64,000 nt of DNA from Candidatus Daviesbacteria bacterium. Lineage in GTDB: Bacteria > Patescibacteriota > Microgenomatia > Daviesbacterales > UBA10151. The first letter of the stretch is position 1. Each line of letters begins with the position of its first letter. The stretch spans positions 7,497 to 71,496 of the forward strand of contig JACOXD010000010.1 of NCBI GenBank assembly GCA_016176465.1. Direction: 5' to 3'. A program made the translations under genes and the position numbers. Below are positions 20,404-41,995 of this stretch, one piece after another. The notes beneath the pieces are model-generated. The model was given only the letters and a program-made list of their open reading frames with translations, was not told the origin of the DNA and did no database searches.

Positions 20404-20430
20404 ACAGATTTGTGTTATATAAAATCTGTA

Positions 20431-21948
20431 ATGTTAGCTAAAGTATTATCAGGGGCAAATGTAGGATTGGATGCCCTTTTGGTTACTGTTGAGGTAGATA
20501 TTGCCTCGCAAGGTTTGCCATCTTTTACCATTGTAGGTTTGGCTGATCGTGCAATTGAGGAATCAAAAGAGCGGGTTCGCTCTGCTATTAAAAATAGTGG
20601 CGGGGAGTTTCCTGCCAAAAGGATAACAGTTAACTTAGCCCCAGCTGATTTTCCCAAAGAAGGACCAATTTTTGATTTACCTATTGCTCTTGGATTATTA
20701 ATCGCATCTGGACAAATAACTGCAAATTTAGATGATACATTAGTGTTGGGTGAGCTTTCACTTGATGGGACGCTACGTCGAGTCAATGGAGTTTTACCCC
20801 TTGCACTTCTTGCGCAAAGACTTAATCTAAAAAGAATCTTTCTTCCGAAAGATAATGCACCAGAGGCAGCAGTGGTTGAGGGGGTGGAAATTTATCCAAT
20901 GGAAAGTTTACTCCAAGTTTCCAAGTTTTTACTCAATCAGGAAGAGATAAATATCCAGCCAAAAACACAGTTTAATATTCAATCTTTCGATGAAGAATTT
21001 GATTTTGCCTATATTAAAGGGCAAGAACAAGCAAAAAGAGCCTTGGAAATTGCAGCAGCAGGAGGTCACAATATTTTACTTAAAGGCCCACCAGGTGCAG
21101 GGAAAACTTTGTTAGCCAGGTCTTTCTCTTCTATTTTACCTAAGTTAAGCTTTGATGAAGCAGTTGAAGTTACTAAAATTTATTCGGTTATGGGAAATTT
21201 ATCTGCAGATGAGCCAATTATAACTACGCGCCCATTTAGAGCTCCTCATCACAGCGCTTCTTATGTAGGTATGATAGGTGGAGGAAATACAATTAGGCCT
21301 GGGGAAGTTTCACTTGCTCATCGAGGGGTATTGTTTTTAGATGAATTTCCAGAGTTTTCCCGTCAAGTAATAGAAGCACTAAGACAACCATTGGAAGATC
21401 GGGTTATCTCAATTTCTAGAGCATCTGGATCTATGAGTTTTCCTGCTCAGTTTATTTTAATTGCAGCTTCTAACCCTTGCCCATGCGGATTTTTAGGAGA
21501 TCAAAAAAGGAACTGTATTTGTTTACCAGGACAAATCTCCCGCTATCAAAAAAAAGTTTCAGGCCCAATTTTAGATAGAATAGATATACATCTGGATGTT
21601 CCACCTGTAGATATTGATAAATTAACAGGCAAGGAGCTAGGGGAAGCTTCCAAAAAAATAAAAAAAAGGGTAGATGAGGCAAGGAAAATCCAAAGGCAAA
21701 GGTTTAGAGACTTTAGAATTTTAACTAATTCCGAAATGAATAATATTCAAATTAAAAAATTTTGCTCAATTAGCAAAGATGCGTTAGATTTATTAAAAAT
21801 GGCTATTGCCCAGATGAATTTATCTGCCAGATCCTATCATCGAGTTTTAAAGCTCGCCAGAACAATAGCAGATTTAGGCAAATCTGAATATATTAAAACA
21901 GAGCATATCGCAGAAGCCTTGCAATACCGGGCAAGAGAGGAGTCCTAA
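20431..21948 (+). CDS. comM: YifB/ComM family Mg-chelatase-like AAA+ ATPase
   Basis: Lon-like N-domain, Walker A GPPGAGKT, ChlI motifs; ATG at 20431 preferred over TTG at 20410. Confidence 0.85.
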   Translation: MLAKVLSGANVGLDALLVTVEVDIASQGLPSFTIVGLADRAIEESKERVRSAIKNSGGEFPAKRITVNLAPADFPKEGPIFDLPIALGLLIASGQITANLDDTLVLGELSLDGTLRRVNGVLPLALLAQRLNLKRIFLPKDNAPEAAVVEGVEIYPMESLLQVSKFLLNQEEINIQPKTQFNIQSFDEEFDFAYIKGQEQAKRALEIAAAGGHNILLKGPPGAGKTLLARSFSSILPKLSFDEAVEVTKIYSVMGNLSADEPIITTRPFRAPHHSASYVGMIGGGNTIRPGEVSLAHRGVLFLDEFPEFSRQVIEALRQPLEDRVISISRASGSMSFPAQFILIAASNPCPCGFLGDQKRNCICLPGQISRYQKKVSGPILDRIDIHLDVPPVDIDKLTGKELGEASKKIKKRVDEARKIQRQRFRDFRILTNSEMNNIQIKKFCSISKDALDLLKMAIAQMNLSARSYHRVLKLARTIADLGKSEYIKTEHIAEALQYRAREES

Positions 21949-21950
21949 AG

Positions 21951-21978
21951 AAAATCCCCCAAATTGGGGGATTTTCTT
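21951..21978. terminator. Bidirectional intrinsic terminator ATCCCCC-AAATT-GGGGGAT flanked by A- and T-runs
   Basis: Perfect 7-bp GC-rich stem between convergent genes. Confidence 0.6.
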
Positions 21979-22504: not shown

Positions 22505-22718
22505 CTTTAGCCTCTCCTACTATGGCAATGAGCCTAGCACGTTCAATTGAGCCTGTCAAGCACGAAATGCATTTTTGCACCTTGCCCTATAGTTGAAAAT
22601 ACGATATAATTTTTGAAATGAATGCTAAACTTTTAAGTAAAATGATTAATACCTATTGGTTTTACTTCCTCTAAAAAGGGAGTATTTTCTAACGCCAATA
22701 AAAAGGCCTTGGAAGAAA

Positions 22719-22741
22719 CCTCCCTAAGGGGAGGTTTTTTT
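22719..22741 (+). promoter_or_regulatory. CCUCCC-UAAG-GGGGAGG hairpin plus U7, ending 5 nt before the start codon (SD sequestered in 3' arm; terminator/attenuator-like)
   Basis: Read directly; same architecture at ~39289, ~41219 and ~41787 (minus strand). Confidence 0.5.
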
Positions 22742-22746
22742 GACCT

Positions 22747-23463
22747 ATGAGAGATGAAATTGGAGAATTAGTAAAAGCAAACGTGAGAGATTATGTAGCC
22801 CAACAGGGATCATTAGAACGTTGTGGACTATGTTGTGTTGTTATTCCTACTGGAACTTTTTCAAAAGGTGGAATGGTGTGTAAAGATCTATCTGTAAGTA
22901 CTGGCATTGCAGTATGTCAAATTTATGCTTCAAGACCAGCTGGTTGCCGACAGTTCGACTGTGGTAACTGCAAAGGACAATTTGAAAGACTTGATCATCT
23001 TGTATTAGAAGCTTTAGGTGGTCTAAAAAGTGCAGTTTACTATCACGAATATGAAGAAGGTTACTCAGAAACTGAAGCCATACCTAAAGCGATTAAGGAT
23101 ATGGCAAGGCTAGATTTATTAAGATTTTCACCAACAGTTTTAGGTTTAATAGAAGATGTCGAACTTACTAATAGAACTGCACCAGCTATTTGGGCTTTGG
23201 TAAGACCAGGCCGCCTTGGAGGAGTAGCACTACCAGATGATATTGTAATGGATTGCTTGGGGGTAGACACTTTCTTGAGAAATACTTCTGTAGCTGGAGC
23301 AAGAGAAACTTTAGTTTTTTCCAGGATGGTCGTTGCTAATGGGAACTCAAGTCCAAATGGTTTGTGGAGACCTGTTGAGAATTTAGTTGCCAGAGGATTA
23401 GGTTTAGGAAATAATGCATTCGCAAATTCCAATATTGGTGACCTATTATATGAAACAGGTTAA
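22747..23463 (+). CDS. YkgJ-family cysteine-cluster (CxxCxxCC) protein with uncharacterised C-terminal domain
   Basis: N-terminal ERCGLCCVV...C...C..C.C..C; K-poor C-terminal half; overlaps aroA start. Confidence 0.5.
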   Translation: MRDEIGELVKANVRDYVAQQGSLERCGLCCVVIPTGTFSKGGMVCKDLSVSTGIAVCQIYASRPAGCRQFDCGNCKGQFERLDHLVLEALGGLKSAVYYHEYEEGYSETEAIPKAIKDMARLDLLRFSPTVLGLIEDVELTNRTAPAIWALVRPGRLGGVALPDDIVMDCLGVDTFLRNTSVAGARETLVFSRMVVANGNSSPNGLWRPVENLVARGLGLGNNAFANSNIGDLLYETG

Positions 23464-24730
23464 AAGTCTAAGAATAAGAAAACTTAAAAAGATACTCTCT
23501 AAAAAAATCTCTATCCCTGGTTCAAAAAGTTATACCAATAGAGCTCTAATTTTAGCAGCTTTAACTAAAGGTAAAGTAGAAATTATTAATCCTTTATTTA
23601 GTGATGATACAGAGGCGATGATTGATTGTATAAAAAAATTAGGGATAAAAGTAGAAAAAAAGGAGGGTGATTTAGTAGTCTATGGATCTTTTAGTGATGT
23701 TAAGAATAAAATATTTAAATTAAATTGCAGACTTTCGGGAACTACTATTAGGTTTTTGCTGGCTTTTAGCTGTATTGTGCGAGGGATTGAAATTTTATTC
23801 GGAGAGAAAAGTTTAAATAAAAGGCCTATCAAAGAGTTAGTAGATGGGTTAATAAAGTTAGGAGCAAAAATTGAATATATAAATAAGGTAGGTTATCCTC
23901 CCATCAAAGTTAGCTCATCAAGCTTAAATGGAAAATCGACTCAACTTAAAGGTGATATAAGTAGCCAGTATTTCTCAGCGATTTTAATGATTGCACCAGT
24001 GGTGGGAAAAATGACTATTAATGTTTTGGGTAGGCAAATATCCAAGCCCTATATAGATATGACCATTGATACCATAAATAAGTTTGGGGGGAAAGTAAAA
24101 AATAATAAATATAGACAATATATTATTCCTAGAAAACAGAAATATAAAGCTAAAAAATACCTAGTGGAAGGAGATTATTCATCAGCAGGATATTTTTTTG
24201 CAATTGCAGCTTTAGCTAAAAGCAACCTAACTTTAACAAACTTAAATAAAGATTCCCTGCAAGCTGATAAAAAATTATTAGAGATTTTAGGAAAAATGGA
24301 CAACCAGGTAGTTTATGAAAAAAATGGCATCACCATAAAAGGAAAAGGGGTTAAACCAATTAGCACTGATATGGAGGACTGTCCTGACCAAATCCAAACT
24401 GTTGCAGTGATGAGTGCCTTTGCTGATGGGGAAACACAAATTAGAGGAGTTAGTAGCTTGCGAATTAAAGAAACAGATAGGGTAGCTGCGCTGCAAAACG
24501 AATTAGCTAAGATGAAAATTAAAACTAAAGCAAACAAAGATACATTATTAATATATGGGGGAAGTCCCAAGGCAGCATCGATTGATACCTATAATGATCA
24601 TCGCATGGCAATGTCTTTTGCCATAGCCTCCTCCAGGCTAGATGGAATGGTAATAAACAATCCTGAAGTTGTCTCAAAAACATTCCCACAATATTGGGAG
24701 AAATTAAAAGAGATAGGATTTAATTTATGA
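23450..24730 (+). CDS. aroA: 3-phosphoshikimate 1-carboxyvinyltransferase (EPSP synthase)
   Basis: ISIPGSKSYTNRALILAAL, LNCRLSGTTIRFL motifs; ATG at 23450 chosen over upstream ORF-track start. Confidence 0.9.
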   Translation: MKQVKSLRIRKLKKILSKKISIPGSKSYTNRALILAALTKGKVEIINPLFSDDTEAMIDCIKKLGIKVEKKEGDLVVYGSFSDVKNKIFKLNCRLSGTTIRFLLAFSCIVRGIEILFGEKSLNKRPIKELVDGLIKLGAKIEYINKVGYPPIKVSSSSLNGKSTQLKGDISSQYFSAILMIAPVVGKMTINVLGRQISKPYIDMTIDTINKFGGKVKNNKYRQYIIPRKQKYKAKKYLVEGDYSSAGYFFAIAALAKSNLTLTNLNKDSLQADKKLLEILGKMDNQVVYEKNGITIKGKGVKPISTDMEDCPDQIQTVAVMSAFADGETQIRGVSSLRIKETDRVAALQNELAKMKIKTKANKDTLLIYGGSPKAASIDTYNDHRMAMSFAIASSRLDGMVINNPEVVSKTFPQYWEKLKEIGFNL

Positions 24731-25230
24731 AAATTATATTAATTGGTTTTATGGGTTCTGGTAAAACAACTGTTGGTAAGGAGTTGGCTAAAAGATTAGG
24801 GGTAAAGTTAATTGATACTGATTCTTTAGTAATTAGAGCATCTGGAAGAAAAAGTATAAAGGAAATTTTTCAAAAAGATGGGGAAATTAGGTTTAGAGAG
24901 TTGGAAATCGAAGTTGCCAAAGAAGTTGCTATGCGAAAAGAAGATCTGGTTGTGGCAACAGGAGGGGGAGTCGTTTTGAACAAAATTATTTTGGATTACT
25001 TAAAAAAAGAGGGAGTAGTTGTCTACCTTGAGGCCTCTTTTAAGGAAATTGCCAAAAGATTAGAAGGTTTTAAAGATAGACCTTTATTTAAAAATTTAAA
25101 AGATGCGAGAAGGCTTTATCTGCTTCGAAAAATACTCTATCGCAGCTATAAAGATATTAAAGTTTTCACAAATAATAAAGATATAAATGAGATTGTTGAT
25201 AATATAATGAAAAAAATAAGGATTTATTAA
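24727..25230 (+). CDS. aroK: Shikimate kinase
   Basis: P-loop GFMGSGKTTVGK; size 167 aa. Confidence 0.85.
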   Translation: MKIILIGFMGSGKTTVGKELAKRLGVKLIDTDSLVIRASGRKSIKEIFQKDGEIRFRELEIEVAKEVAMRKEDLVVATGGGVVLNKIILDYLKKEGVVVYLEASFKEIAKRLEGFKDRPLFKNLKDARRLYLLRKILYRSYKDIKVFTNNKDINEIVDNIMKKIRIY

Positions 25231-26313
25231 ATGTCTGGAAATTCTTTTGGAACACTTTTTAAAATAACAACTTTTGGAGAATCCCATGGTAGGGCAGTTG
25301 GGGTAATTATTGATGGGTGTCCTCCAGGAATAGAAATTACTGAGGAAGAAATCCAAAAAGAATTGGATAGGCGAAAACCCGGACAAAGTAAAATTACCAC
25401 CCCAAGGAAAGAGGCAGATACTATCCAAATTACATCAGGGGTGTTTGAGGGCAAAACTACAGGAACTCCCATTATGATGATCGCTTACAATGAGGATATT
25501 GAATCTGATGATTATTTAGACTTAAAAGATTTGTACAGGCCTTCTCATGCTGATTATACATATGAAGCAAAGTATGGAATTAGAGATTGGCGAGGTAGTG
25601 GTCGAGCTTCAGCCAGAGAAACTATGGCTAGAGTTGCAGCAGGAGCCATTGCTAAAAAATATCTTAAGGAAAAATTAGGAATAGAAATTTTAAGTTATGT
25701 TGAGCAAGTTGGGGATTTAAAAACCAATATTGATTTTGAAAAGGTAACCCCCAAGCAGATTGAATCTAATATTATCCGCTGTCCTGATTCTAAAATAGCT
25801 TCAGAAATGATTAAGCTTATAGAAAAAGTTAGAGATGCTGGTGATTCGCTCGGAGGGATAATCAAAGGAGTTATCAAAGGAGCTCCGCCAGGTTTAGGGG
25901 AACCTGTTTTTGATAAGTTACATGCAAACTTAGGAAAAGCTATGCTTTCCATAAACGCTGTTAAAGGCTTTGATATAGGCTCTGGTTTTGCGGGAGTTTC
26001 TATGAGAGGATCGGAGCATAATGATCCTTTTTATATTGATGAAGGTAAAGTTAGAACTAAAACAAACTATGCTGGTGGAGTCTTGGGTGGAATCTCCTCT
26101 GGCCAAACAATTTATTTTAGAGTTGCCTTTAAGCCTGTTTCAACAATTAAAAAAAAGCAGCAAACAATAAATACCGCAAAAAAACAAGTTTTCTTGGAAG
26201 CTTCAGGAAGGCATGATCCTTGTGTTTTGCCTCGGGCTGTACCAATTGTTGATGCAATGGCAGCCCTAGTAATAATGGATTTTTATCTAGTTCATAGAGG
26301 TAAAAGTGAGTAA
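25231..26313 (+). CDS. aroC: Chorismate synthase
   Basis: GNSFG..F...[18 protein letters not shown] motifs. Confidence 0.9.
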
Positions 26314-33971: not shown

Positions 33972-35609
33972 ATGATTACTGCCAAGATTTGGAAAGTTAA
34001 AGAAAGAAGTAAAGAGGATTTAATAGAGCAGCTTTTGCTTAATAGGGGGCTAAATTCAAAAAAACAAAAGGATGAATTCTTTAATCCTAAATTGGAAAAC
34101 TTCCAAAAGGATTTAGAAATCAAAGGAATAAAGATAGCCCAAAAAAGAATACAGAAAGCTATATATAACCAGGAGCTAATTATAGTCTATGGGGATTATG
34201 ATGTTGATGGAATTGCTGCATCGGCCATAGTATATAAGGCCTTAACTTCTTTGGGAGCAAAGATTTTGCCCTATATTCCCCACCGCGAAAAAGAAGGATA
34301 TGGATTGTCAAAATTAGGTTTAGAGCATGCCAGGGATAGTGGTGCAACTTTAGTTATTACAGTTGATAATGGAATTGTAGCAATAAAGCAGGCTGAATTT
34401 GCTAAAGAATTGGGTTTGGATTTAATTATTACTGACCATCATTTACCGCTTGATGAAAAACCACAAGCTTTTGCAATTGTCCACTCTATTAAAATGTGCG
34501 GAGCTGGTGTGGCTTGGTGTTTAGTTAAAGATTTAATAAAAAAAGATCTAAGTGATGAACTTTTACAGTTTGTAGTAATTGCCACCATTGCAGATTTAAT
34601 GCCTTTAGTGGGATTAGGTAGAGCATTTGCAGTTGAAGGTTTAAAACAGCTTAATCAAACTAAAAACTTAGGTCTAGTTGCACTGATGAAAGAATCTGGT
34701 TTAGAGCCAGGTGAGATTACTGGTTATGACGTAGGTTATATTTTAGCTCCCCGCCTAAATGCTATTGGCAGGTTGGAACATGCAATTGATGCATTAAGGC
34801 TTCTTTGCACTAATGACCCTATTAAAGCTACAAAATTAGCAAAGCTTTGCAGTGATACAAATTCCATAAGACAAAAAATAACAGAGGAGGCTATGATTGA
34901 TGCTAAAGCTCTTATAGATAGTAAGGACAAAAGCAAGATTCACATTGTTGATAGCGAAAAATGGGTTCCGGGAATTATAGGTTTAATAGCAGGTCGGATT
35001 TCTGAGGAGTATTATCGTCCGGCCATAGCAATATCTATCGGTGAGGGTATATCCAAAGGATCTGCCAGATCAATAAATGGGGTAAATATTGTTGAAATAA
35101 TTAGGACCTGCTCTGATATTTTAGTGGATGTAGGAGGACACTCAGGAGCTGCGGGATTTAGCATAGCAAATGATAAAATTGCTGAATTTAAATTAAGAAT
35201 TCGTAAACATTTAGAAAGTTTAGAGGATTTTTCAGACCCAATCTTGGAAATCGATGCAGAAGTTTCAAAAAAGGATTTGACGCTACATTATGCTAGGTTA
35301 ATAGAAAAATTTGCACCATTTGGATTGGGTAATCCTAGGCCCTTACTTATTAGCTCTGCCATGGCAGTTTCCGATTTAAGAACAGTGGGAGAGGGAAAAC
35401 ATTTAAAATTTAAAGTCTCTCCCTCTGTCATCCACAGTGGAGCAGCACGGAATGAAGGATCTATTGATTGTATAGCTTTCAATATGGGAGATTTAAAAGA
35501 TATTTTAATTGATGGAATTTTAGTTGATTTGGTTTTTTACTTAGAAGTGAATAGGTTTAACGGAACAGAAAAAATACAATTAAAAGTTAAAGATCTTAAG
35601 TTAGCTTAA
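33972..35609 (+). CDS. recJ: Single-stranded-DNA-specific exonuclease RecJ
   Basis: DHH motifs IVYGDYDVDGIAAS, ITDHH; DHHA1 GGH..AAG. Confidence 0.85.
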   Translation: MITAKIWKVKERSKEDLIEQLLLNRGLNSKKQKDEFFNPKLENFQKDLEIKGIKIAQKRIQKAIYNQELIIVYGDYDVDGIAASAIVYKALTSLGAKILPYIPHREKEGYGLSKLGLEHARDSGATLVITVDNGIVAIKQAEFAKELGLDLIITDHHLPLDEKPQAFAIVHSIKMCGAGVAWCLVKDLIKKDLSDELLQFVVIATIADLMPLVGLGRAFAVEGLKQLNQTKNLGLVALMKESGLEPGEITGYDVGYILAPRLNAIGRLEHAIDALRLLCTNDPIKATKLAKLCSDTNSIRQKITEEAMIDAKALIDSKDKSKIHIVDSEKWVPGIIGLIAGRISEEYYRPAIAISIGEGISKGSARSINGVNIVEIIRTCSDILVDVGGHSGAAGFSIANDKIAEFKLRIRKHLESLEDFSDPILEIDAEVSKKDLTLHYARLIEKFAPFGLGNPRPLLISSAMAVSDLRTVGEGKHLKFKVSPSVIHSGAARNEGSIDCIAFNMGDLKDILIDGILVDLVFYLEVNRFNGTEKIQLKVKDLKLA

Positions 35610-36526
35610 GAGGAGATTTTAGTTAAAAATTCTAAATATTTTGGGTATTCCCCATGGACTAATTTGTTATAAATATCTTGGACTTTGCCAGTAATTTCTC
35701 CTACCACACCATCTCCAATCTTTCGATCATCAATTTCTATAACTGGTAAAATCTCTGCTCCTGTTCCAACTAAAAAAACCTCATCAGCAGATGTTAGTTG
35801 GGTTTTAACTAAACTTTCCTCCTTAACCTCAATGTTTAAATCTTCCTTTATGATTTTTATAACAGTGTCTCTGGTTACACCTTGTAAAATATCATCTGAA
35901 ATAGGAGGAGTGTAAGCAATATTGTTTTTAACAATAAATAAATTTTCTGCACTTCCTTCCACTACATTACCTTTATGGTCTAAAAATAAAGCTTCATCAT
36001 ATCCCGCTAATGAACTCTCTGTCTTAGCAAGTGAGGTATTAACATAAGACCCAGTAATTTTGCCTCTAGGAGGAATTTGATTATCTGATACCCTAACCCA
36101 GGATGAAATTTTACAATGAATACCTTTTTTTATATCTCCATACCTTCCAAGAGGGACAGTGTAAATAAGGAAGCTATCTCTTAAGGTTTTTAAATTAAAA
36201 TTACCAACAGCGGGATCTGATTTAAATGCTAGCGGTCTAATATAAAGGTCAGTTTTTTCAAAATTTTTTTTGACCAATTCTTTAGTTATATCAATCAACT
36301 TTTCTAAAGAGTAGGGCAAGTCAATAAATAAAATTTTGCATGATTGAAGCATCCTCTTATAGTGATCATCAACTCTAAAAATAAATAGTGCATCCATCTT
36401 TTTTGAATAATAGGCCCTAATCCCTTCAAAACAACCAGTCCCATAATGCAAAGCATGAGTAGTTATGGGCACATTAGCTTCATCTAGTGGGATAAATTTT
36501 CTATCAAAAAATACTTGTGGTTTCAT
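35606..36526 (-). CDS. ilvE: Branched-chain amino acid aminotransferase (class IV PLP)
   Basis: HYGTGCFEGIRAY, GTGAEI fold motifs. Confidence 0.8.
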   Translation of the reverse strand: MKPQVFFDRKFIPLDEANVPITTHALHYGTGCFEGIRAYYSKKMDALFIFRVDDHYKRMLQSCKILFIDLPYSLEKLIDITKELVKKNFEKTDLYIRPLAFKSDPAVGNFNLKTLRDSFLIYTVPLGRYGDIKKGIHCKISSWVRVSDNQIPPRGKITGSYVNTSLAKTESSLAGYDEALFLDHKGNVVEGSAENLFIVKNNIAYTPPISDDILQGVTRDTVIKIIKEDLNIEVKEESLVKTQLTSADEVFLVGTGAEILPVIEIDDRKIGDGVVGEITGKVQDIYNKLVHGEYPKYLEFLTKISS

Positions 36527-36816: not shown

Positions 36817-38408
36817 TATTGTTTTAAAATATTTAAAGCTTGAGTTAACTTTTGATCATTTAAGTTTACCTCAACTTCAATAAAAAAGTAATAATCCCAT
36901 ACCTTTTCTTTACTAGGACGGGATTCAATTTTATTTAAATTAATTCCTAAATCCGCAAACACACTTAAAATATCCCTTAAAATTCCTACTCTGTTAAAAA
37001 TAGTTAGAAAGAGTAAGGTTTTCGTAGAAACTTTTGCCAAAGGATTTAAGTGTTTGGAAATTAAATAAAATTTGGTGATATTATTTTGATTATCCTCAAT
37101 ATTTTTGGCCAAAATATTTAAGTTATAAAGTTTTGCCGCGAGTGATGGGCCAATAAAAGCTACTCCTTTTTTAGCTGCATCATTAGCAATCCCGGATAAT
37201 GTGCTGGCAGAGTATTCCAACTGTACTTGTGGCAAATTCTCATTCAAATAGTGTTTGCATTGAGCAATTCCTTGAGGATGGGAAATTACTTTTTTTATTT
37301 TATTTAAGCTAGATTCCTTGGAAAGTAAGTTTTGATTAACTTTAAGTTCTAAAGATCCATTAGTTTTCAAGTTAAACTTTACAAGAAAGTCTAGTGTTTC
37401 CCGGATAGTCCCTTCAGTTGAATTTTCTGCTGGGACTACCCCAAAATCTAGCTCACCATAAGATAGCGCTTGAAAAATATCAAACAAAGTGGGTTTAGGT
37501 ATTAGAGTTTGTTCGTTACTATCAACAACTTTTAAAGCTGCTTGGTGAGAAAAAGTTCCATTTGGTCCTAAAAAACCCAATTTTACCTTTTTTAGATTTA
37601 GCTTTAAACTTTTATGTTTGTCAATAATAGTTTGGATTTTTGTAGGATTTGGTTCAACTTGGGATTTCAAAGTTCTAATTTCTTTTTTAATTAAATCTTC
37701 TTTCTTTTTGATAATTAATTTAATTAAAACTTCCTGGTTTTTAAGATGATTTTTTAAAATAGCAGGATACTCAGGGTTATTAATCTGTAGTTGAGAGATT
37801 AATTCTTCATCTTGAGCGAGTACTCTACTCAAAACAGAAACTTGATTTAAAAAAACAGGTGTAGAAATTTTTCCTGCTGTATTTATTTTATTTTGAAGTA
37901 AGGTTTTTGCCAAACTTATGTTGATGAAATGAATTAGGGCTTGAATGTGAGCCATCTGGAAATCGTGTTCTTTAAGTCCTAAGTTTATGATTTGTCCTCC
38001 CGCATTTTGAATTAGCTTTCTTAAGTTTTCAATAAGTTTATGTTTTTTAATTTCCACAAAAATTACTTTTTGATTCTCAATAGATGATAATTTAGGTCCA
38101 AATAATAAATGCATACATAAAGCTCCATTTTTAGTTTTTTCTAAACTTTTTGATGTTTTGGAGATGATGGAAGATAAATCCACCAATAAAACATCATCCC
38201 TGCTAATTTTGGAAGTCTCATCAATTACTTTTGGTGCAATAGAAATCGGGACAGAGATAAAAATAATATCTGAATTTTTTACATCATCTGATTTGGAATT
38301 ATTTTTCCCACTGATAGTACTAGATACTCCTTGGCTTTCCAAAAAATTTTTAAGCCAATTACCCATTGCACCAGTTCCACCAATAATGTGAATTCTTAAG
38401 TTGTCCAT
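36783..38408 (-). CDS. Bifunctional prephenate dehydrogenase (TyrA) / prephenate dehydratase (PheA) fusion with C-terminal ACT domain
   Basis: N-terminal Rossmann IIGGTGAMG + PDH region; central PDT motif GFLGPNGTFSHQAA; C-terminal ACT LLFLTIFNRVGILRDIL. Confidence 0.75.
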   Translation of the reverse strand: MDNLRIHIIGGTGAMGNWLKNFLESQGVSSTISGKNNSKSDDVKNSDIIFISVPISIAPKVIDETSKISRDDVLLVDLSSIISKTSKSLEKTKNGALCMHLLFGPKLSSIENQKVIFVEIKKHKLIENLRKLIQNAGGQIINLGLKEHDFQMAHIQALIHFINISLAKTLLQNKINTAGKISTPVFLNQVSVLSRVLAQDEELISQLQINNPEYPAILKNHLKNQEVLIKLIIKKKEDLIKKEIRTLKSQVEPNPTKIQTIIDKHKSLKLNLKKVKLGFLGPNGTFSHQAALKVVDSNEQTLIPKPTLFDIFQALSYGELDFGVVPAENSTEGTIRETLDFLVKFNLKTNGSLELKVNQNLLSKESSLNKIKKVISHPQGIAQCKHYLNENLPQVQLEYSASTLSGIANDAAKKGVAFIGPSLAAKLYNLNILAKNIEDNQNNITKFYLISKHLNPLAKVSTKTLLFLTIFNRVGILRDILSVFADLGINLNKIESRPSKEKVWDYYFFIEVEVNLNDQKLTQALNILKQYCPVTKILGAV

Positions 38409-39271
38409 ATTGAATTTTCATCCTCTCTATTTAACTTTCTGTATAATTTTAAAATTAACCCTGCCAGTTTATCCCAAGTTAAGTGTTGGTTAGAATCTGT
38501 TAGTGCGTTTCCTGGATCAATCCTAGTTTCTATAATAAACCCATCAAAGTTCTTTCCTAAGTTTTGACTAAAGGTTAGTGTTTCCTCTATTACTTTTTCA
38601 ACATTAGCAGTTGTGCCGCCAATATGGGAAGGATCAATTATCATGGATAGATCTGATGTTTCTTTGACCCTTAAAGCCATTGCTAAATCATGAGGATTTC
38701 TGTAAGAGTTTGGATTTCTTGGTTCCTCAGTTCCTGGATCAAACCCACGATGACATAAAATTATTTTACCCTCTAATTTTTTAGCCCTCTCCTCATCACC
38801 TAATACATGGGATAAAATTCCCAGCCAGTGTTTTTCACTTTTCCAGGGTTGATTTTTAATCATTAAATAAACTCCCCCACCTTGAGTGGAAACCAATTCT
38901 CCAATCTCATCTTGATCCAGGTGCTCTTGCATCCTGGAGCCAATCCAGATTAAGACTTGAGGATTATTAGATTTTTGTTTAATGGTTTTTATTATATCTT
39001 TTGCCATTGAAACATTTCGCACCTCGGTTGCAGGAATCATTCCTAAATTTGCTATCTCCACAAGTCCATCTAAAAATTCCTGCCTTTTATCTTTTGATTC
39101 ATGGTACATCCCACTCCAGGATCTTACAGTTCTTGGTTTATAGCCAGATGCCCTAAAAATTAATCCACCCATTTTTTTAAAAACTAGGGCATTCTCAAGC
39201 ATCTGCTTTCTACTTTCAGCAGCACATGGTCCTGCTATTATTATTGGTGATTTAAGATTTATTAATTTCAT
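38396..39271 (-). CDS. 3-deoxy-7-phosphoheptulonate (DAHP) synthase, type I-beta (KDO8PS-like)
   Basis: IIAGPCAAES...GYKPRT motif. Confidence 0.8.
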   Translation of the reverse strand: MKLINLKSPIIIAGPCAAESRKQMLENALVFKKMGGLIFRASGYKPRTVRSWSGMYHESKDKRQEFLDGLVEIANLGMIPATEVRNVSMAKDIIKTIKQKSNNPQVLIWIGSRMQEHLDQDEIGELVSTQGGGVYLMIKNQPWKSEKHWLGILSHVLGDEERAKKLEGKIILCHRGFDPGTEEPRNPNSYRNPHDLAMALRVKETSDLSMIIDPSHIGGTTANVEKVIEETLTFSQNLGKNFDGFIIETRIDPGNALTDSNQHLTWDKLAGLILKLYRKLNREDENSIWTT

Positions 39272-39282
39272 ATTTTTCCATT

Positions 39283-39304
39283 AAAAAACCTCCCATGAGG
39301 GAGG
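39283..39304 (-). promoter_or_regulatory. CCUCCC-UCAU-GGGAGG hairpin + U6 located 17 nt upstream of DAHP synthase start (minus strand)
   Basis: Read directly; member of the recurring anti-SD/SD hairpin family. Confidence 0.45.
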
Positions 39305-39441
39305 TTTGCTTTTAAAGACTTTTAGTCTTTAAACTACTAACAAACCCCCTCCTTACGGAAGGCAAAATAAGCAAAAAACCACTTATTAACTTGGTTTGTT
39401 TTCATAACTTTAAAAAAGTCTAACAAATACTATATAGCTTG

Positions 39442-41211
39442 TCAAATTTTATAAAAGCCTCTACCTGGTTCTAATATAATTTGATCAACGTTAGCACCAG
39501 GAGGCATAATTGGTAATATCTTTTCATTAGGATCAACCCAGAAATCCAATAAATAAGCATCAGGAGAGGTAAGCATTCTAACAAGACCAGGTTCTACTTC
39601 ATCCCACCTTGTAACTTTTTCCCCTCCAAAACCACGAGACTCTGCAATCTTTACAAAGTCAGGAGGTTTTCTATCGACTGAAGAGCGTTTTCTATCGACT
39701 GAAGAGCGTCTCCCATCCCAAAAATCTTCTTGCCACTGTCTTACCAAACCTAGTCCTCGATTATTAAATAGAGCTATTTTTACAGCTACTCCATGATTAG
39801 CAGCTGTTGTTAATTCTCCCTCTGTCATTTGAAAACCGCCATCTCCTACTATTAAAACTACTTCCTTTTCTGGGTGGGCAATTTTTATTCCAATAGCGGC
39901 TGGTAATCCCCATCCCATGGTTCCTGCTCCTCCGGTTGTAAAAAAACTGTAAGGATCTTCTTGCATTAAATGTTGAAACGCAGCCATTTGATGTTGACCC
40001 ACATCTGCCACAGCTATTGTTTTTCCTTGAGTTAATTTTGAATATATGTGTGTTATTCCTGCCATTGTTAATGGACCTTCAATGGCTATTGCTTTCCTAG
40101 TTACTCTTTCGTATTGGACTCGAGCAAGCTTTCTAAATTCTTCCAGCCATTCCTCATGACTATTTTCTCTCAAAGCTTCTGCTAATGCTTGTAATCCCAG
40201 AAGTGCATCAGCTTGAATTGCTACATCAGCATTAACTACTCGATTGAACTCCTCTAGATTAATATCCATGTGTATGATCTGTGCTTGTTTTGCGTACCCT
40301 GCTACTTTTCCAGTTACTCTATCATCAAATCTCATTCCAACCCCGAGTATAGTTTGTGCCCTATTAGTGTTTATATTTGCTCCTAAGTCACCATGCATAC
40401 CCAGTCCTCCAACATATAAAGAATGATCACTTGGCATACTAGATAACCCCAGTAATGTGGTAGCAACTGGTATTCCTCCTTTTTCAGCAACTGCTTTTAG
40501 AGCTTCAGCAGCTCTGGATCTCGATACTCCTTGACCAGCAAGAATATAAGGCCTTTTAGATTTATTTAACAAATCAGCAGCCCTTTCTATTTGCCCCAGT
40601 GCTTGAGGTGTAAGTTCTGGGCGCATAAAGCCTGGCGCTGGGGAAAATATCTTAAATTCTGCTTTAGCAACCTGCCAATTTCTGGGTATATCAATTAATG
40701 CAGGACCAGGAGCACCATCTTGGGCGACGTGGAAAGCTTGATCCATGATAGCAGGGATTTCTTCCACGTTTTTTATTTGATAGGCCCACTTAGTAAAGGG
40801 GAGAGCTCCAGAAACTATATCTGCTTCTTGGAATGCTCGGGTTCCTTCTACAGTTGAAGCAACATTTCCAGTTATAATTACCATTGGCACATTATCCATT
40901 TGCCCGGTATAAAGACCAGTTAGTGTGTTTGTTGCTCCGGGACCTGATGTAAATAAACCTACACCCACTTCCCCTGTGGCACGAGCGTAACCATCCATTA
41001 TATGTGTACCACCCTGTTCATGAGTTACCTCAATTCGTTCGAAGGGATAATCATATAAGGCATCAAAGGTAGGCATAATTGCCCCTCCCGGAAGAACGGC
41101 AATCTTCTTGACATGATGACGCTCTAATGATCTCATCACTGCTTGACCACCTGTTAACGTTTCTCGCCCAGTGGATGACTGGGCTTCTAATTGTCTCTCT
41201 GCTATTGCCAT
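39442..41211 (-). CDS. Thiamine-pyrophosphate enzyme, acetolactate synthase large-subunit-like
   Basis: TPP motif GDGGFQMT...N, FAD/central domain; start taken at MAIAERQ (ATG 41211) because upstream codons are the hairpin; K-poor, GC-richer than neighbours. Confidence 0.75.
   Translation of the reverse strand: MAIAERQLEAQSSTGRETLTGGQAVMRSLERHHVKKIAVLPGGAIMPTFDALYDYPFERIEVTHEQGGTHIMDGYARATGEVGVGLFTSGPGATNTLTGLYTGQMDNVPMVIITGNVASTVEGTRAFQEADIVSGALPFTKWAYQIKNVEEIPAIMDQAFHVAQDGAPGPALIDIPRNWQVAKAEFKIFSPAPGFMRPELTPQALGQIERAADLLNKSKRPYILAGQGVSRSRAAEALKAVAEKGGIPVATTLLGLSSMPSDHSLYVGGLGMHGDLGANINTNRAQTILGVGMRFDDRVTGKVAGYAKQAQIIHMDINLEEFNRVVNADVAIQADALLGLQALAEALRENSHEEWLEEFRKLARVQYERVTRKAIAIEGPLTMAGITHIYSKLTQGKTIAVADVGQHQMAAFQHLMQEDPYSFFTTGGAGTMGWGLPAAIGIKIAHPEKEVVLIVGDGGFQMTEGELTTAANHGVAVKIALFNNRGLGLVRQWQEDFWDGRRSSVDRKRSSVDRKPPDFVKIAESRGFGGEKVTRWDEVEPGLVRMLTSPDAYLLDFWVDPNEKILPIMPPGANVDQIILEPGRGFYKI
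39667..39708. repeat. Perfect 21-bp tandem duplication (in frame) inside the TPP enzyme gene, encoding RSSVDRK twice
   Basis: TTTTCTATCGACTGAAGAGCG x2 read directly. Confidence 0.9.
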
Positions 41212-41240
41212 AAAAAAACCTCCCATTTGGGAGGCTAAAA
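41212..41240 (-). promoter_or_regulatory. CCUCCC-AAAU-GGGAGG hairpin + U7 immediately followed by ATG of the TPP enzyme (minus strand)
   Basis: Read directly; downstream of mini-ORF 41261-41356. Confidence 0.5.
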
Positions 41241-41260
41241 AAATCCTTTCTCTTTTAGTT

Positions 41261-41356
41261 TTACCTAAAAGCGCCTCCCAACATAAGGGTAATAATAATT
41301 ACCCCAAGAGAGACTAAAATTTCTTCATTTAAATTTATTGTTACTATCTTTATCAT
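41261..41356 (-). CDS. Mini-ORF, 31 aa, Ile/Val/Leu-rich (MIKIVTINLNEEILVSLGVIIITLMLGGAFR); candidate leader peptide or small membrane peptide
   Basis: ORF below track threshold; paralog of 41832-41942 (both end LGG-x-FR); followed by hairpin+U-tract then ALS start. Confidence 0.35.
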   Translation of the reverse strand: MIKIVTINLNEEILVSLGVIIITLMLGGAFR

Positions 41357-41429: not shown

Positions 41430-41717
41430 TTAGCGATTCCCTGATATTCTCTGACGATCTCTAAATGTTCCAAATTTTGTATCCACATATTCTGCATAGA
41501 ATGGATGTCGTCCCTCCGCTATTTCTGGTACTGGCCTTAAACCATTGAAGGAAATACTGCCTGTTGGATTCATAGGTATTGTAGATTTTACTCTAGAACC
41601 CTCAGGTTGATAAAGTACATCTCGTGTTCCAAATACTGCTGTATCCTTACTTACCCTAATAGGTGAAATTCCTTCTCCAACCTGGACTTTGACAGTTTCT
41701 TTATTTCTTCCTTCCAT
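41430..41717 (-). CDS. Hypothetical 95-aa protein (K-poor, Gly/Arg/Pro-rich)
   Basis: ORF with SD AAAGGAGGTG 9 nt upstream; atypical composition for this genome. Confidence 0.45.
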   Translation of the reverse strand: MEGRNKETVKVQVGEGISPIRVSKDTAVFGTRDVLYQPEGSRVKSTIPMNPTGSISFNGLRPVPEIAEGRHPFYAEYVDTKFGTFRDRQRISGNR

Positions 41718-41786
41718 TTTTTAACACCTCCTTTCTAATTTTTAGACTAAGCAAAGCTTTCCTTTTGCTTCTCAAAACGTAAAAAA

Positions 41787-41802
41787 CCTCCCCGTAGGGA
41801 GG
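41787..41802 (-). terminator. CCUCCC-UACG-GGGAGG hairpin + U-tract on minus strand, after mini-ORF 41832-41942
   Basis: Read directly. Confidence 0.5.
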
Positions 41803-41831
41803 CTAAATTCTTTCTTTAGGTTTATTTAAAT

Positions 41832-41942
41832 TTACCTAAAAAGACCTCCCAAGATAAATCCTCCAACAAGGAGGACCTCAAGTAGGAGGCCAAGAACTAA
41901 AACTAACTGTGTTTTTGAATCAATTGCTAAAACTTTACTCAT
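41832..41942 (-). CDS. Mini-ORF, 36 aa, Leu/Val-rich (MSKVLAIDSKTQLVLVLGLLLEVLLVGGFILGGLFR)
   Basis: Paralog of 41261-41356; preceded by promoter/operator at 41967-41995. Confidence 0.35.
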   Translation of the reverse strand: MSKVLAIDSKTQLVLVLGLLLEVLLVGGFILGGLFR

Positions 41943-41966
41943 AACTATTCTAAATATTTTAATATT

Positions 41967-41995
41967 TATGCCTGCTATTGTCAAGCTAGGCATAA
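41967..41995. promoter_or_regulatory. Divergent promoter region with 10/11-bp palindrome TTATGCCTaGC-N7-GCaGGCATAA overlapping a TTGACA-17-TAAAAT promoter (minus strand)
   Basis: Read directly; likely operator. Confidence 0.45.

Follow-up and report, generated by a model that had tools for sequence, protein, structure and literature searches.

Leader-peptide attenuators of the ilvB and ilv type are exemplified by E. coli ivbL and ilvL, and in ermC-type leaders attenuation is translational and involves hairpins that sequester the SD. The classical attenuators, E. coli pheL-pheA and trpL-trpEDCBA, are described by the Yanofsky model (PMC3082878, PMC1183508, PMC11802643). For Corynebacterium glutamicum aroR-aroF, the account we draw on places a Phe-Tyr-Phe leader peptide upstream of the DAHP synthase operon (Neshat et al. 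2014, as related in PMC11802643). Leaders of ilv genes have been described for C. glutamicum ilvBNC (PMC11857589) and Staphylococcus aureus ilv-leu (PMC5794164), with candidate ilvB leaders in Actinobacteria (PMC1262725), and in Deinococcus deserti, where start sites were mapped by dRNA-seq, leaderless leader peptides have been predicted for attenuators (PMC4007540). Among the top-ranked results of our literature search, we found no published report of leader-peptide attenuation in Patescibacteria (the Candidate Phyla Radiation, CPR). Bacteria of this group are usually seen as metabolically reduced, poor in amino-acid biosynthesis and with few known regulatory systems.

The window analysed here is a 64-kb stretch of a Candidatus Daviesbacteria genome (Patescibacteria/CPR; 35% G+C) that contains four CCTCCC-N4-GGGAGG hairpins, each followed by a run of six or seven U residues. 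Site a lies on the + strand (22719-22734, T7 at 22735-22741), and sites b (39304-39289, T6 at 39288-39283), c (41234-41219, T7 at 41218-41212) and d (41802-41787, T6 at 41786-41781) lie on the − strand; a first-pass annotation had listed the same four copies, each of which we could confirm at its position. Across the 64 kb, CCTCC-N3-10-GGAGG occurs six times against 0.15 expected by chance, and the motif combined with a T-run occurs exactly four times against an expectation of 0.01 that was computed with two mismatches allowed. A fifth CCTCCC-N4-GGGAGG copy, at 6145-6160, is within an ORF and has no T-run. Hairpins a and b escaped our general terminator scan, probably because the stem was extended into the T-run, so a re-scan for perfect stems was used; of the five terminators in the window for which it found a perfect stem and a T-run, four are sites a–d and the fifth is at a true convergent 3′ end and has a CCCCC/GGGGG stem. 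Plain terminators, as the first-pass annotation pointed out, would place the motif equally often at gene 3′ ends; across the window and 16 fetched loci, we found the exact motif and T-run at leader sites only and at no ordinary gene 3′ end.

Upstream of all four hairpins we observed a mini-ORF with an ATG start that is rich in cognate amino acids and ends 44–49 nt 5′ of the hairpin. The leaders are ~125–165 nt long, and nearly their whole length is taken up by the ORF and three helices: by predicted folding, each can form a 1:2 hairpin (−8 to −28 kcal/mol), a 2:3 antiterminator that captures the CCUCCC arm (−18 to −26 kcal/mol) and a 3:4 terminator (−13 to −14 kcal/mol), the terminators having stems of 7–9 bp, tetraloops, U6-7 and stabilities of −13.0 to −14.4 kcal/mol. 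Each hairpin is thus very probably the Rho-independent terminator (3:4) of a classical ribosome-mediated leader-peptide transcription attenuator, and in silico the sequence hallmarks of such an attenuator are present, namely a cognate ORF, an intrinsic terminator, an exclusive 2:3 pairing, an overlap with segment 1 and, for b, c and d, conservation. The attenuation that the first-pass annotation had proposed is supported by the leader ORFs and the alternative folding. Its suggestion of a shared riboregulatory design had overlooked the sensor ORFs; because a short, cognate-rich ORF is present in four of four leaders, it gives way to ribosome-mediated, leader-peptide attenuation.

In the scheme we propose, transcription would start a few nucleotides 5′ of the leader ORF, as the promoter-like matches suggest, and the codon run of the ORF would correspond to the end products of the downstream genes, with Trp/Phe/Tyr before the aro and DAHP synthase operons and Ile/Leu/Val before the acetolactate synthase (ALS) gene and a 95-aa gene. 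When charged tRNA is plentiful, the ribosome would reach the end of the leader and mask the purine-rich segment 2 (GGGAG/GGAGG) at or shortly past the ORF end, so that CCUCCC segment 3 and GGGAGG segment 4 would pair and transcription would terminate in the U-tract. If the cognate amino acid runs short, the ribosome would stall on regulatory codons that overlap the pyrimidine-rich segment 1, leaving segment 2 free to pair with CCUCCC before segment 4 is transcribed, with read-through into the genes as the outcome. If the leader is not translated, 1:2 and then 3:4 would form, and termination would follow. The freed 3′ arm may double as a ribosome-binding site at ALS and perhaps at the aro operon. 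The SD/anti-SD appearance of the arms can be explained by the need for segments 1 and 3, and segments 2 and 4, to resemble each other, which short G+C-rich purine and pyrimidine blocks satisfy in a genome of such low G+C content. The ORFs, alternative pairings, conservation and covariation are computed, and we infer promoter use, ribosome stalling and the response to amino acids. Read-through would accordingly follow the supply of charged cognate tRNA and depend on leader translation; mutation of candidate regulatory codons in the Streptomyces coelicolor ilvB leader had no effect (PMC1262725), which counsels caution for the present leaders. No SD precedes the ORF in any of the four leaders, so translation is assumed, from the promoter-like matches, to be leaderless or to start from a short UTR; such matches are no more frequent than in shuffled sequence.

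Attenuator b, on the − strand, precedes the DAHP synthase gene (38396..39271), the first of an operon that extends down to 35606 and encodes DAHPS, a prephenate dehydrogenase/dehydratase fusion, chorismate mutase and a class IV aminotransferase. A promoter-like site (TTGACA-17-TAGACT with a TG before, 39417..39445) is followed by the leader ORF (39337..39405), which encodes MKTNQVNKWFFAYFAFRKEGVC and then a stop, contains the aromatic run WFFAYFAF and is kept in eight Microgenomates-like loci. The 1:2 hairpin CCUUCC-GUAA-GGAGGG (39347..39362, −8.4 kcal/mol) is encoded by conserved F-R-K-E-G codons, the 2:3 antiterminator pairs GAGGGGGUUUGUU with AGCAAACCUCCCUC (39297..39351, −25.9 kcal/mol), and the 3:4 terminator is AAACCUCCC-UCAU-GGGAGGUUU plus the U-run (39283..39307, −14.4 kcal/mol).

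Attenuator a, on the + strand, precedes the aro operon, which consists of a 238-aa Cys-rich orphan gene (22747..23463), aroA (EPSP synthase, 23414-24730 in the ORF list, with a real start that may be later), aroK (shikimate kinase, 24727-25230) and aroC (chorismate synthase, 25231-26313). A word-indexed homolog search with the orphan returned only itself, and comparison with Pfam gave only a faint, non-significant CxxCxxCC match; a full HMMER search returned 12 weak relatives, making it a real but rare gene. The promoter-like site TTGCCC-17-TATAAT (22582..22610) is a consensus match only; with 7 nt between the end of its −10 box and the leader ATG, the transcript would carry little or no 5′ UTR ahead of the leader ORF. 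This ORF (22618..22674) encodes MNAKLLSKMINTYWFYFL and a stop, with five aromatic codons in succession (Y W F Y F). The 1:2 hairpin UACUUCCU/AGGGAGUA (22663..22684, −8.1 kcal/mol) spans the final regulatory codons together with the stop codon, the 2:3 antiterminator (22676..22727, −21.1 kcal/mol) encloses an internal hairpin and pairs AGGGAG (22677-22682) with CUCCCU in the 5′ arm of the terminator, and the 3:4 terminator is AACCUCCC-UAAG-GGGAGGUU plus the U-run (22717..22741, −13.4 kcal/mol). That AAGGGAG could pair with the 5′ arm as an antiterminator had been proposed in the first-pass annotation and is borne out by folding, although the segment lies at 22676-22682 and not at 22664-22670, where the sequence is ACTTCCT, the opposite pyrimidine segment.

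Attenuators c and d lie in series on the − strand and are clearly paralogous in their 3′ halves. The leader ORF of attenuator c (41261..41356) encodes MIKIVTINLNEEILVSLGVIIITLMLGGAFR and a stop, has I/L/V at 15 of its 31 residues and is nearly identical in a close relative, L010. Its 1:2 structure pairs GUCUCUC with GGGAGGC (41273..41314, −17.4 kcal/mol) around an internal hairpin formed by the GVIIITL codons, its 2:3 antiterminator pairs UGGGAGGC with GCCUCCCA (41227..41281, −20.9 kcal/mol), and its 3:4 terminator is GCCUCCC-AAAU-GGGAGGU plus U7 (41212..41236). Directly downstream is the large subunit of a biosynthetic-type ALS (39442..41211, above the TIGR00118 cutoff), for which ATG 41211 is the sole credible start upstream of the conserved domain that begins at residue 19; the L010 ALS is called from the equivalent ATG. 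In attenuator d, a promoter-like site matching at 11 of 12 positions (TTGACA-17-TAAAAT, 41956..41984) precedes a leader ORF (41832..41942) that encodes MSKVLAIDSKTQLVLVLGLLLEVLLVGGFILGGLFR and a stop, with L/V/I at 19 of 36 residues; its L010 ortholog is MSKALLIDLRKENLLIVLLTLVLLVGGFLGGLFR. The 1:2 structure pairs GGCCUCCUA with UGGGAGGUC around an internal hairpin (41843..41891, −27.7 kcal/mol), the 2:3 antiterminator pairs GGGAGGU with GCCUCCC (41796..41851, −17.6 kcal/mol), and the 3:4 terminator is GCCUCCC-UACG-GGGAGGU plus U6 (41781..41804, −14.3 kcal/mol). Directly downstream of d is a 95-aa orphan gene (41430..41717) with its own SD, AAAGGAGGT. Database entries for the 95-aa protein number two, its own and that of a homolog with 88% identity, and neither Pfam nor NCBIfam matches it; its AlphaFold model has a mean pLDDT of 35 and is unusable, and we know of no tie between it and branched-chain amino acids.

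When we folded the full-length leaders at equilibrium with a ribosome placed at successive codons, leader b adopted the antiterminator with the ribosome at codons 1–14 and the terminator from codon 16 onward, and leader c adopted the antiterminator at codons 11–21 and the terminator from codon 22 onward. Leaders a and d showed no switch in this full-leader analysis, with the terminator present at every ribosome position, and switch only in a nascent-RNA (kinetic) folding analysis; kinetic control also operates in the E. coli trp attenuator. In the nascent RNA, in which the 3′ arm is absent, the 5′ arm was sequestered with a probability of ~0.7–1.0 when the ribosome sat on the regulatory codons and was free (sequestered 0–0.2) when it sat 1–3 codons past them. 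This switch was seen in 15 of 16 leaders, comprising all four of the window and 11 of 12 from related loci, the exception being L010d, where the script took the wrong hairpin for the terminator.

The aromatic-rich leader ORF with its terminator was present in 10 of 10 distinct related Patescibacteria loci, for example as MLTSQNWYFFYAFAFRKEGVC, MDRKISKWFSYFSFYFRKEGVF and MINKSINWFSFYYFTFRKEGAV, and it stands before DAHP synthase in nine of them, a small ORF following instead in L010. Tandem pairs of attenuators occur in a Peregrinibacteria locus and in another Patescibacteria locus. Conservation is thus based on 10 distinct loci for b and on one close relative, L010, for c and d, and no ortholog of a was available. 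In a nine-sequence alignment of the b family, terminator pair 110-121 is U-A in five sequences and C-G in four, antiterminator pairs 65-107 and 66-106 have changed on both sides, and standard pairs occupy 92–93% of cells vs 70–76% after a one-column shift of the partners. A DAHP synthase search of genome contigs returned two loci, one from Peregrinibacteria and the other from Sphingobacteriales (27% identity), which has no leader, and an ALS search of metagenomes returned one unrelated high-G+C locus, L009, also with no leader. At Rfam gathering thresholds, the sole hit in the window was a tRNA. Below threshold, the best match for all four leaders was Phe_leader (RF01859), the family that represents pheL, with 38.3 bits for a (22632-22744), 30.6 for c, 30.5 for b and 24.7 for d; these scores of 24.7–38.3 bits compare with a gathering score of 55, and the match is an architectural resemblance and not family membership.

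Given the GGGAGG in the terminator 3′ arm, a second layer may be added to the attenuator without replacing it, such that one hairpin terminates transcription and also hides the SD of the next gene, and translation of read-through RNA would require the antiterminator to hold GGGAGG single-stranded; we regard this as a tentative proposal and lean somewhat against it. It is best illustrated by c, where the arrangement GGGAGG-U7-AUG has an ideal 7-nt spacing to the sole credible ALS start and is kept in L010, so that the c 3′ arm could serve as the ALS SD. At locus L004 the DAHP synthase start is likewise an ATG directly past the U-tract, at a the stem-to-ATG spacing is 12 nt, and re-formation of the terminator (−13 to −14 kcal/mol) would block access to the SD. 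Attenuator terminators normally have no RBS overlap (PMC4833913), so such compaction would be unusual. Against a general second layer, the b hairpin lies 17 nt from the real DAHP synthase start (ATG 39271), the nearer ATG 39281, 7 nt past the stem, opening only an out-of-frame nine-codon ORF (MEKYEINKS and a stop); the 95-aa gene starts 69 nt past the stem of d and has its own SD; and in L010 the ATG past terminator d opens a six-codon ORF only. Moreover, the orthologous attenuators have GCCCCC/GGGGG stems, with DAHP synthase starts that lack an SD and lie 15–96 nt downstream, and GGAGG precedes just 6 of the window's 52 long ORFs, many of which look leaderless, so that in general no SD is needed here. 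An SD within the helix at a functional distance (~5–10 nt) is therefore found in c, L010c and L004, is borderline in a, and is absent from b, d, L005, L006, L008, L011, L013 and L014. The first-pass annotation had set every copy directly in front of a start codon, which is correct for a (ATG 22747) and c (ATG 41211) and not for b and d, and had read every copy as an RBS sequester, which fits c (7 nt), is marginal for a (12 nt) and does not fit b or d. In its strongest form, a compacted attenuator in which one 16-nt hairpin and its U-tract act as the terminator, the RBS sequester and, once opened, the sole strong SD, the idea is rather unlikely; if it were true, the U-tract would be the spacer between SD and AUG, the SD would be opened by the antiterminator, and one ribosome stalled on a leaderless ORF would gate both transcription and translation of ALS and the aro operon, a compaction in a CPR organism whose genes mostly lack an SD.

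The remaining explanations do without sensing by a stalled ribosome, and we consider all of them improbable. According to one, the 31-aa and 36-aa ORFs of c and d would be functional small membrane peptides, toxin-like or regulatory, with terminators of their own; both are long and hydrophobic enough for a membrane span, share a conserved C-terminal LGG(A/L)FR and are conserved in L010. However, the sequence coding for the shared C-terminus, UUGGGAGG(C/U), is at the same time segment 2 of the switch, so that constraints on the RNA explain why this C-terminus is conserved. The d peptide differs at many positions between the window and L010 and yet stays L/V/I-rich, attenuator c is directly 5′ of acetolactate synthase, and folding with a ribosome mask gives attenuator-like behaviour. 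Still less probable, and largely refuted already, is that the hairpins are ordinary intrinsic terminators of upstream genes that happen to be built of SD-like hexamers, with biased mini-ORFs arising by chance. Hairpin b does lie downstream of ALS and hairpin c downstream of the 95-aa gene, and chance-biased mini-ORFs do arise in the AT-rich window, where 9 aromatic-rich and 5 ILV-rich distinct examples were counted among 772, mostly inside genes. Hairpin a, however, sits in a divergent intergenic region where no gene ends upstream, promoter-like sites and conserved in-frame leader ORFs intervene between the upstream genes and the hairpins, the sole clear 3′-end terminator of the window differs in sequence, the motif is absent from gene 3′ ends in the fetched loci, and the antiterminator pairing covaries. 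Finally, a leader with the same terminator but irrelevant mini-ORFs, controlled by a protein, tRNA or metabolite (TRAP-like, T-box or riboswitch), is disfavoured already and hardly credible, for although aro and ilv genes are commonly controlled by T-boxes in low-G+C Gram-positive bacteria, no relevant match to a T-box or riboswitch Rfam model was found in the leaders even at E ≤ 1, the ORF and three helices leave almost no room in them, and the reading frame and aromatic run are conserved across divergent b-family sequences. The paralogy of c and d also suggested a REP-like or mobile palindrome, which we rejected, as context, leader ORFs and covariation argue for function instead.

The mechanism is textbook and its conceptual novelty limited; our literature search turned up no earlier account of it in Patescibacteria among its top-ranked results. 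This Daviesbacteria genome encodes much of the shikimate, Phe/Tyr and ALS machinery, apparently under ribosome-coupled attenuators, which would imply coupled transcription-translation and amino-acid sensing in uncultured Patescibacteria. For annotators, these are unannotated cis-regulatory elements that fall below the threshold of every Rfam model, and the leaders could serve as a simple marker of the amino acids that these organisms make themselves.

Compared with the known systems, the present leaders share with ermC-type leaders an anti-SD:SD helix before a start codon, the opening of which would be tied to ribosome stalling in a short ORF further upstream, but differ in that the helix is followed by U6-7 and is terminator-like, and in that the SD placement is not conserved among orthologous elements. 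As in D. deserti, the leader ORF appears to lie at or next to the transcription start and has no SD, whereas the start here is suggested by −10-like boxes. Attenuator c resembles the ilvB and ilv-leu attenuators in that an Ile/Leu/Val-rich leader ORF and then a terminator directly precede the ALS large subunit; unlike them, the locus has two paralogous attenuators in series (d, then c) with a 95-aa orphan between, no ilvN, ilvC or ilvD nearby, and a terminator 3′ arm positioned as an ilvB SD. As far as C. glutamicum aroR-aroF is described in the account cited above, attenuator b resembles it in its aromatic leader peptide, its DAHP synthase operon and the ribosome stalling that we infer here, a likeness in architecture across different phyla; the runs here are longer, with 5–8 aromatic residues of 8–9, and attenuators occur in tandem in other Patescibacteria. 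E. coli pheL and trpL likewise have a short leader ORF with a cognate codon run, alternative 1:2, 2:3 and 3:4 helices and a Rho-independent terminator ahead of the first structural gene, and their stop codon is so positioned that a ribosome terminating there covers segment 2. [quoted passage not shown]

Four hairpins of one architecture, in which CCTCCC (5′ arm) and GGGAGG (3′ arm) enclose a 4-nt loop and T6 or T7 follows, lie at 22719–22741 (+; hairpin a), 39304–39283 (−; b), 41234–41212 (−; c) and 41802–41781 (−; d), as the first-pass annotation had described them. The pattern including the T-run has four exact matches in the window against 0.01 expected, an expectation calculated with two mismatches allowed, and the shorter CCTCC-N3–10-GGAGG has six matches against 0.15 expected from shuffles; the four hairpins are real and non-random. 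They make up four of the five strict terminators (perfect stem, at least four G/C pairs, T-run behind) in the 64-kb window, and across 16 fetched loci the exact motif with its T-run was confined to leader sites, not equally common at gene 3′ ends, the distribution that the annotation had named as counting against regulation. The sole non-attenuator among the strict terminators, AATCCCCC-N5-GGGGGATT at 21955–21971, is bidirectional, with T-rich tails on both strands, and separates a convergent ComM/Mg-chelatase-like gene (20410–21948, +) and 45-aa DUF5679 zinc-ribbon gene (22137–22000, −). A fifth CCTCCC-N4-GGGAGG palindrome (6145–6160) falls within an ORF (5076–6455, −), lacks the U-tract and is probably unrelated to the attenuators.

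A short ATG-started ORF precedes each hairpin, ending 44–49 nt before it: MNAKLLSKMINTYWFYFL for a (22618–22674, +), MKTNQVNKWFFAYFAFRKEGVC for b (39405–39337, −), MIKIVTINLNEEILVSLGVIIITLMLGGAFR for c (41356–41261, −) and MSKVLAIDSKTQLVLVLGLLLEVLLVGGFILGGLFR for d (41942–41832, −). The amino-acid composition of these ORFs agrees with the pathway of the genes behind the hairpins. Hairpin a is followed (22747 onward, +) by a 238-aa orphan, EPSP synthase, shikimate kinase and chorismate synthase; b (39271 down to 35606, −) by DAHP synthase, a prephenate dehydrogenase/dehydratase fusion, chorismate mutase and an IlvE-type aminotransferase; c by the large subunit of a biosynthetic-type acetolactate synthase (ALS; 39442–41211, −; TIGR00118, 560.5 bits vs a cutoff of 538.35); and d by a 95-aa orphan (41430–41717, −), after which attenuator c comes next. 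Because biased mini-ORFs also arise by chance in this window of 35% G+C (9 distinct aromatic-rich and 5 ILV-rich among 772, mostly within genes), the case rests on the conjunction of leader ORF, terminator, matching pathway and conservation, and we conclude that the hairpins are very probably parts of leader-peptide attenuators. Of the riboregulation first proposed, attenuation thus stands; its sensor, the leader peptide, had been missed, and sequestering of the ribosome binding site (RBS) is local at best.

The 238-aa orphan (22747–23463, +) is Cys-rich and first in the aro operon, has only 12 weak homologs among 1.8 billion representatives, and gave just a faint, non-significant CxxCxxCC match in a Pfam search; that it shares an aromatic attenuator with aroA, aroK and aroC is a hint that it takes part in the pathway. 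No aroB, aroD or aroE was found among the scanned window ORFs, and the ALS gene stands alone, with no ilvN, ilvC, ilvD or leu genes among the scanned neighbouring ORFs. The 95-aa orphan, between two branched-chain attenuators and with a strong Shine-Dalgarno (SD) sequence of its own, has an identical Candidatus Daviesbacteria entry in NCBI; only two database members are known, the protein of the window and a homolog of 88% identity, it matched no family, and its AlphaFold model was unusable (pLDDT 35). The IlvE-equivalog class IV aminotransferase (35606–36526, −), the last gene of the DAHP synthase operon, also adjoins that operon in another Patescibacteria contig (L015, 350–1177), and may supply the last Phe/Tyr transamination.

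Leaders a, b and d are directly preceded by sigma-70-like matches whose −10 box ends 7–13 nt ahead of the ATG; such matches are not enriched over shuffles and are therefore weak evidence taken alone. Many ordinary window genes, for example those starting at 45534 (+), 13644 (−), 32433 (−), 9547 (+) and 43382 (+), lack an SD and carry a −10-like box 5–8 nt ahead of the ATG, so leaderless or short-UTR initiation looks normal for this organism. Judging from these sequences, leaderless mRNAs seem common in the Daviesbacteria genome; for Deinococcus deserti, leader peptides of the leaderless type have been described (PMC4007540).

Each leader RNA can be divided into a pyrimidine-rich segment 1 overlapping the regulatory codons, a purine-rich segment 2 (GGGAG or GGAGG) at the ORF end or directly after it, and segments 3 and 4, the CCUCCC and GGGAGG arms. 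Predicted stabilities of the 1:2 hairpin, 2:3 antiterminator and 3:4 terminator are −8.1, −21.1 and −13.4 kcal/mol for a, −8.4, −25.9 and −14.4 for b, −17.4, −20.9 and −13.0 for c, and −27.7, −17.6 and −14.3 for d. We folded the leaders with a ribosome mask under which nothing could pair as far as 9 or 12 nt beyond the A-site codon. At full-length equilibrium the terminator of b was absent with the ribosome at codons 1–14 and full from codon 16, and that of c was absent at codons 11–21 and full from codon 22; a and d showed no switch, keeping the terminator at all ribosome positions. In nascent RNA that still lacked the 3′ arm, segment 2 captured the 5′ arm in all four leaders with a probability of ~0.7–1.0 when the ribosome was on the regulatory codons, and the arm was freed (0–0.2) in all four when it reached the last few codons or the stop. 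The AAGGGAG proposed as antiterminator for a was therefore correct in substance, although it lies at 22676–22682 and not 22664–22670. Untranslated leader d formed 1:2 and left the 5′ arm free, the classical “superattenuation” state. In the b family, conserved F-R-K-E-G codons supply the 1:2 helix CCUUCC-GUAA-GGAGGG, and the LGG common to the C-termini of peptides c and d is encoded by their segment 2 (UUGGGAGG). Attenuators c and d are clear paralogs in their 3′ halves, from UUGGGAGG up to and including the terminator (41212–41300 vs 41781–41870, −), which points to attenuator duplication.

DAHP synthase homologs occur in Daviesbacteria, Levybacteria, Peregrinibacteria and other Patescibacteria, and in nine of 10 distinct related loci an aromatic-rich ORF and a terminator precede the gene. 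Seven carry one leader each (MLTSQNWYFFYAFAFRKEGVC; MDRKISKWFSYFSFYFRKEGVF; MINKSINWFSFYYFTFRKEGAV; MIKKTLNWFSFTYFNFRKEAIS; MVNRNNWFSFTYFYFCKEEAS; MKNRVNWFSFYFYFRKEGAV; MDRKISKWFSFFSFYFRKEGAV), and two carry tandem leaders, ...TFWSYYF... and ...NYWFYYYYFY... in Peregrinibacteria (L002, 5654–5960) and ...NFYFYND... and ...KFYFYFYPA in the other Patescibacteria contig (L015, 1227–1470). The tandem terminators have GCCCGC-type stems unrelated to those of the window, yet under the ribosome mask both these distant leaders and the orthologs gave the profile of the window leaders. The tenth locus, from a close relative (L010), shares this hairpin with the window at its equivalents of d, c and b, and behind its aromatic leader MKTNQVQKWFFAFYFAFRKEGVC comes a small ORF rather than DAHP synthase. 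Small unknown ORFs occupy that place, and a ~70-nt element, ATGTTCAAT...CTGATACAAATTCATGCTATAGCATATTTGTGTATCAG...GGAAAGGAGG with a long hairpin inside, is repeated behind terminators d and b (5896–5990 and 8421–8500). In a nine-sequence alignment, terminator pair 110–121 is U-A in five and C-G in four, and antiterminator pairs 65–107 (CG 4, UG 3, UA 2) and 66–106 (UA 8, CG 1) change on both sides; standard pairs fill 92–93% of cells vs 70–76% with partners slid one column. This covariation supports both the terminator and the antiterminator states. No Rfam family matched the leaders at gathering level, and the best sub-threshold match of all four was Phe_leader (RF01859; 38.3, 30.6, 30.5 and 24.7 bits vs a gathering score of 55).

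The stems had also been read as an SD paired with its complement, each directly before a start codon. This fits c best, where GGGAGG-U7-AUG gives a 7-nt spacing to ATG 41211; since the conserved domain starts as early as residue 19, no other ALS start is credible. L010 retains the arrangement, and the spacing at a is 12 nt. At b, however, the ATG behind the hairpin (39281) opens a 9-codon out-of-frame ORF and the true DAHP synthase start, 39271, lies 17 nt from the stem, and at d the next gene is 69 nt downstream with its own AAAGGAGGT. One relative (L004, 513–1379) does open DAHP synthase at the ATG directly after the U-tract (MEKGFD...), but in other relatives the start lies 15–96 nt beyond the stem, across an A/U-rich stretch and without an SD, four orthologs have GCCCCC/GGGGG stems, and GGAGG occurs within 22 nt upstream of only 6 of 52 long window ORFs. 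That the 3′ arm doubles as the RBS of ALS is possible but less likely than not. Several other window ORFs have a weak AAGGA(T) upstream. The window counterpart of the L004 start (39253–39282, −) reads MEKYEINKS in another frame and overlaps the real start; together these features suggest a recent indel and, possibly, translational coupling or reinitiation. The simplest reason for the SD-like appearance is attenuator logic itself, since segments 1 and 3 must match, as must 2 and 4, and short purine/pyrimidine G+C blocks make strong helices in an AT-rich genome.

Attenuators a–d belong to a well-known regulatory kind, of which no report in Patescibacteria/CPR was found among the top-ranked full-text matches, a partial coverage in which absence is not proof. 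ILV-rich leaders before ilvB are known or predicted in Proteobacteria. The same is true of Actinobacteria and Staphylococcus (PMC1262725, PMC11857589, PMC5794164), and a Phe-Tyr-Phe leader peptide precedes the DAHP synthase operon in Corynebacterium glutamicum (aroR-aroF, as summarised in PMC11802643). The proposed mechanism is the one known from classical trp/phe/ilv attenuators (PMC1183508, PMC3082878). According to one published statement, the RBS of the structural gene is normally kept clear of an attenuator's terminator (PMC4833913); attenuators c and a deviate from this.
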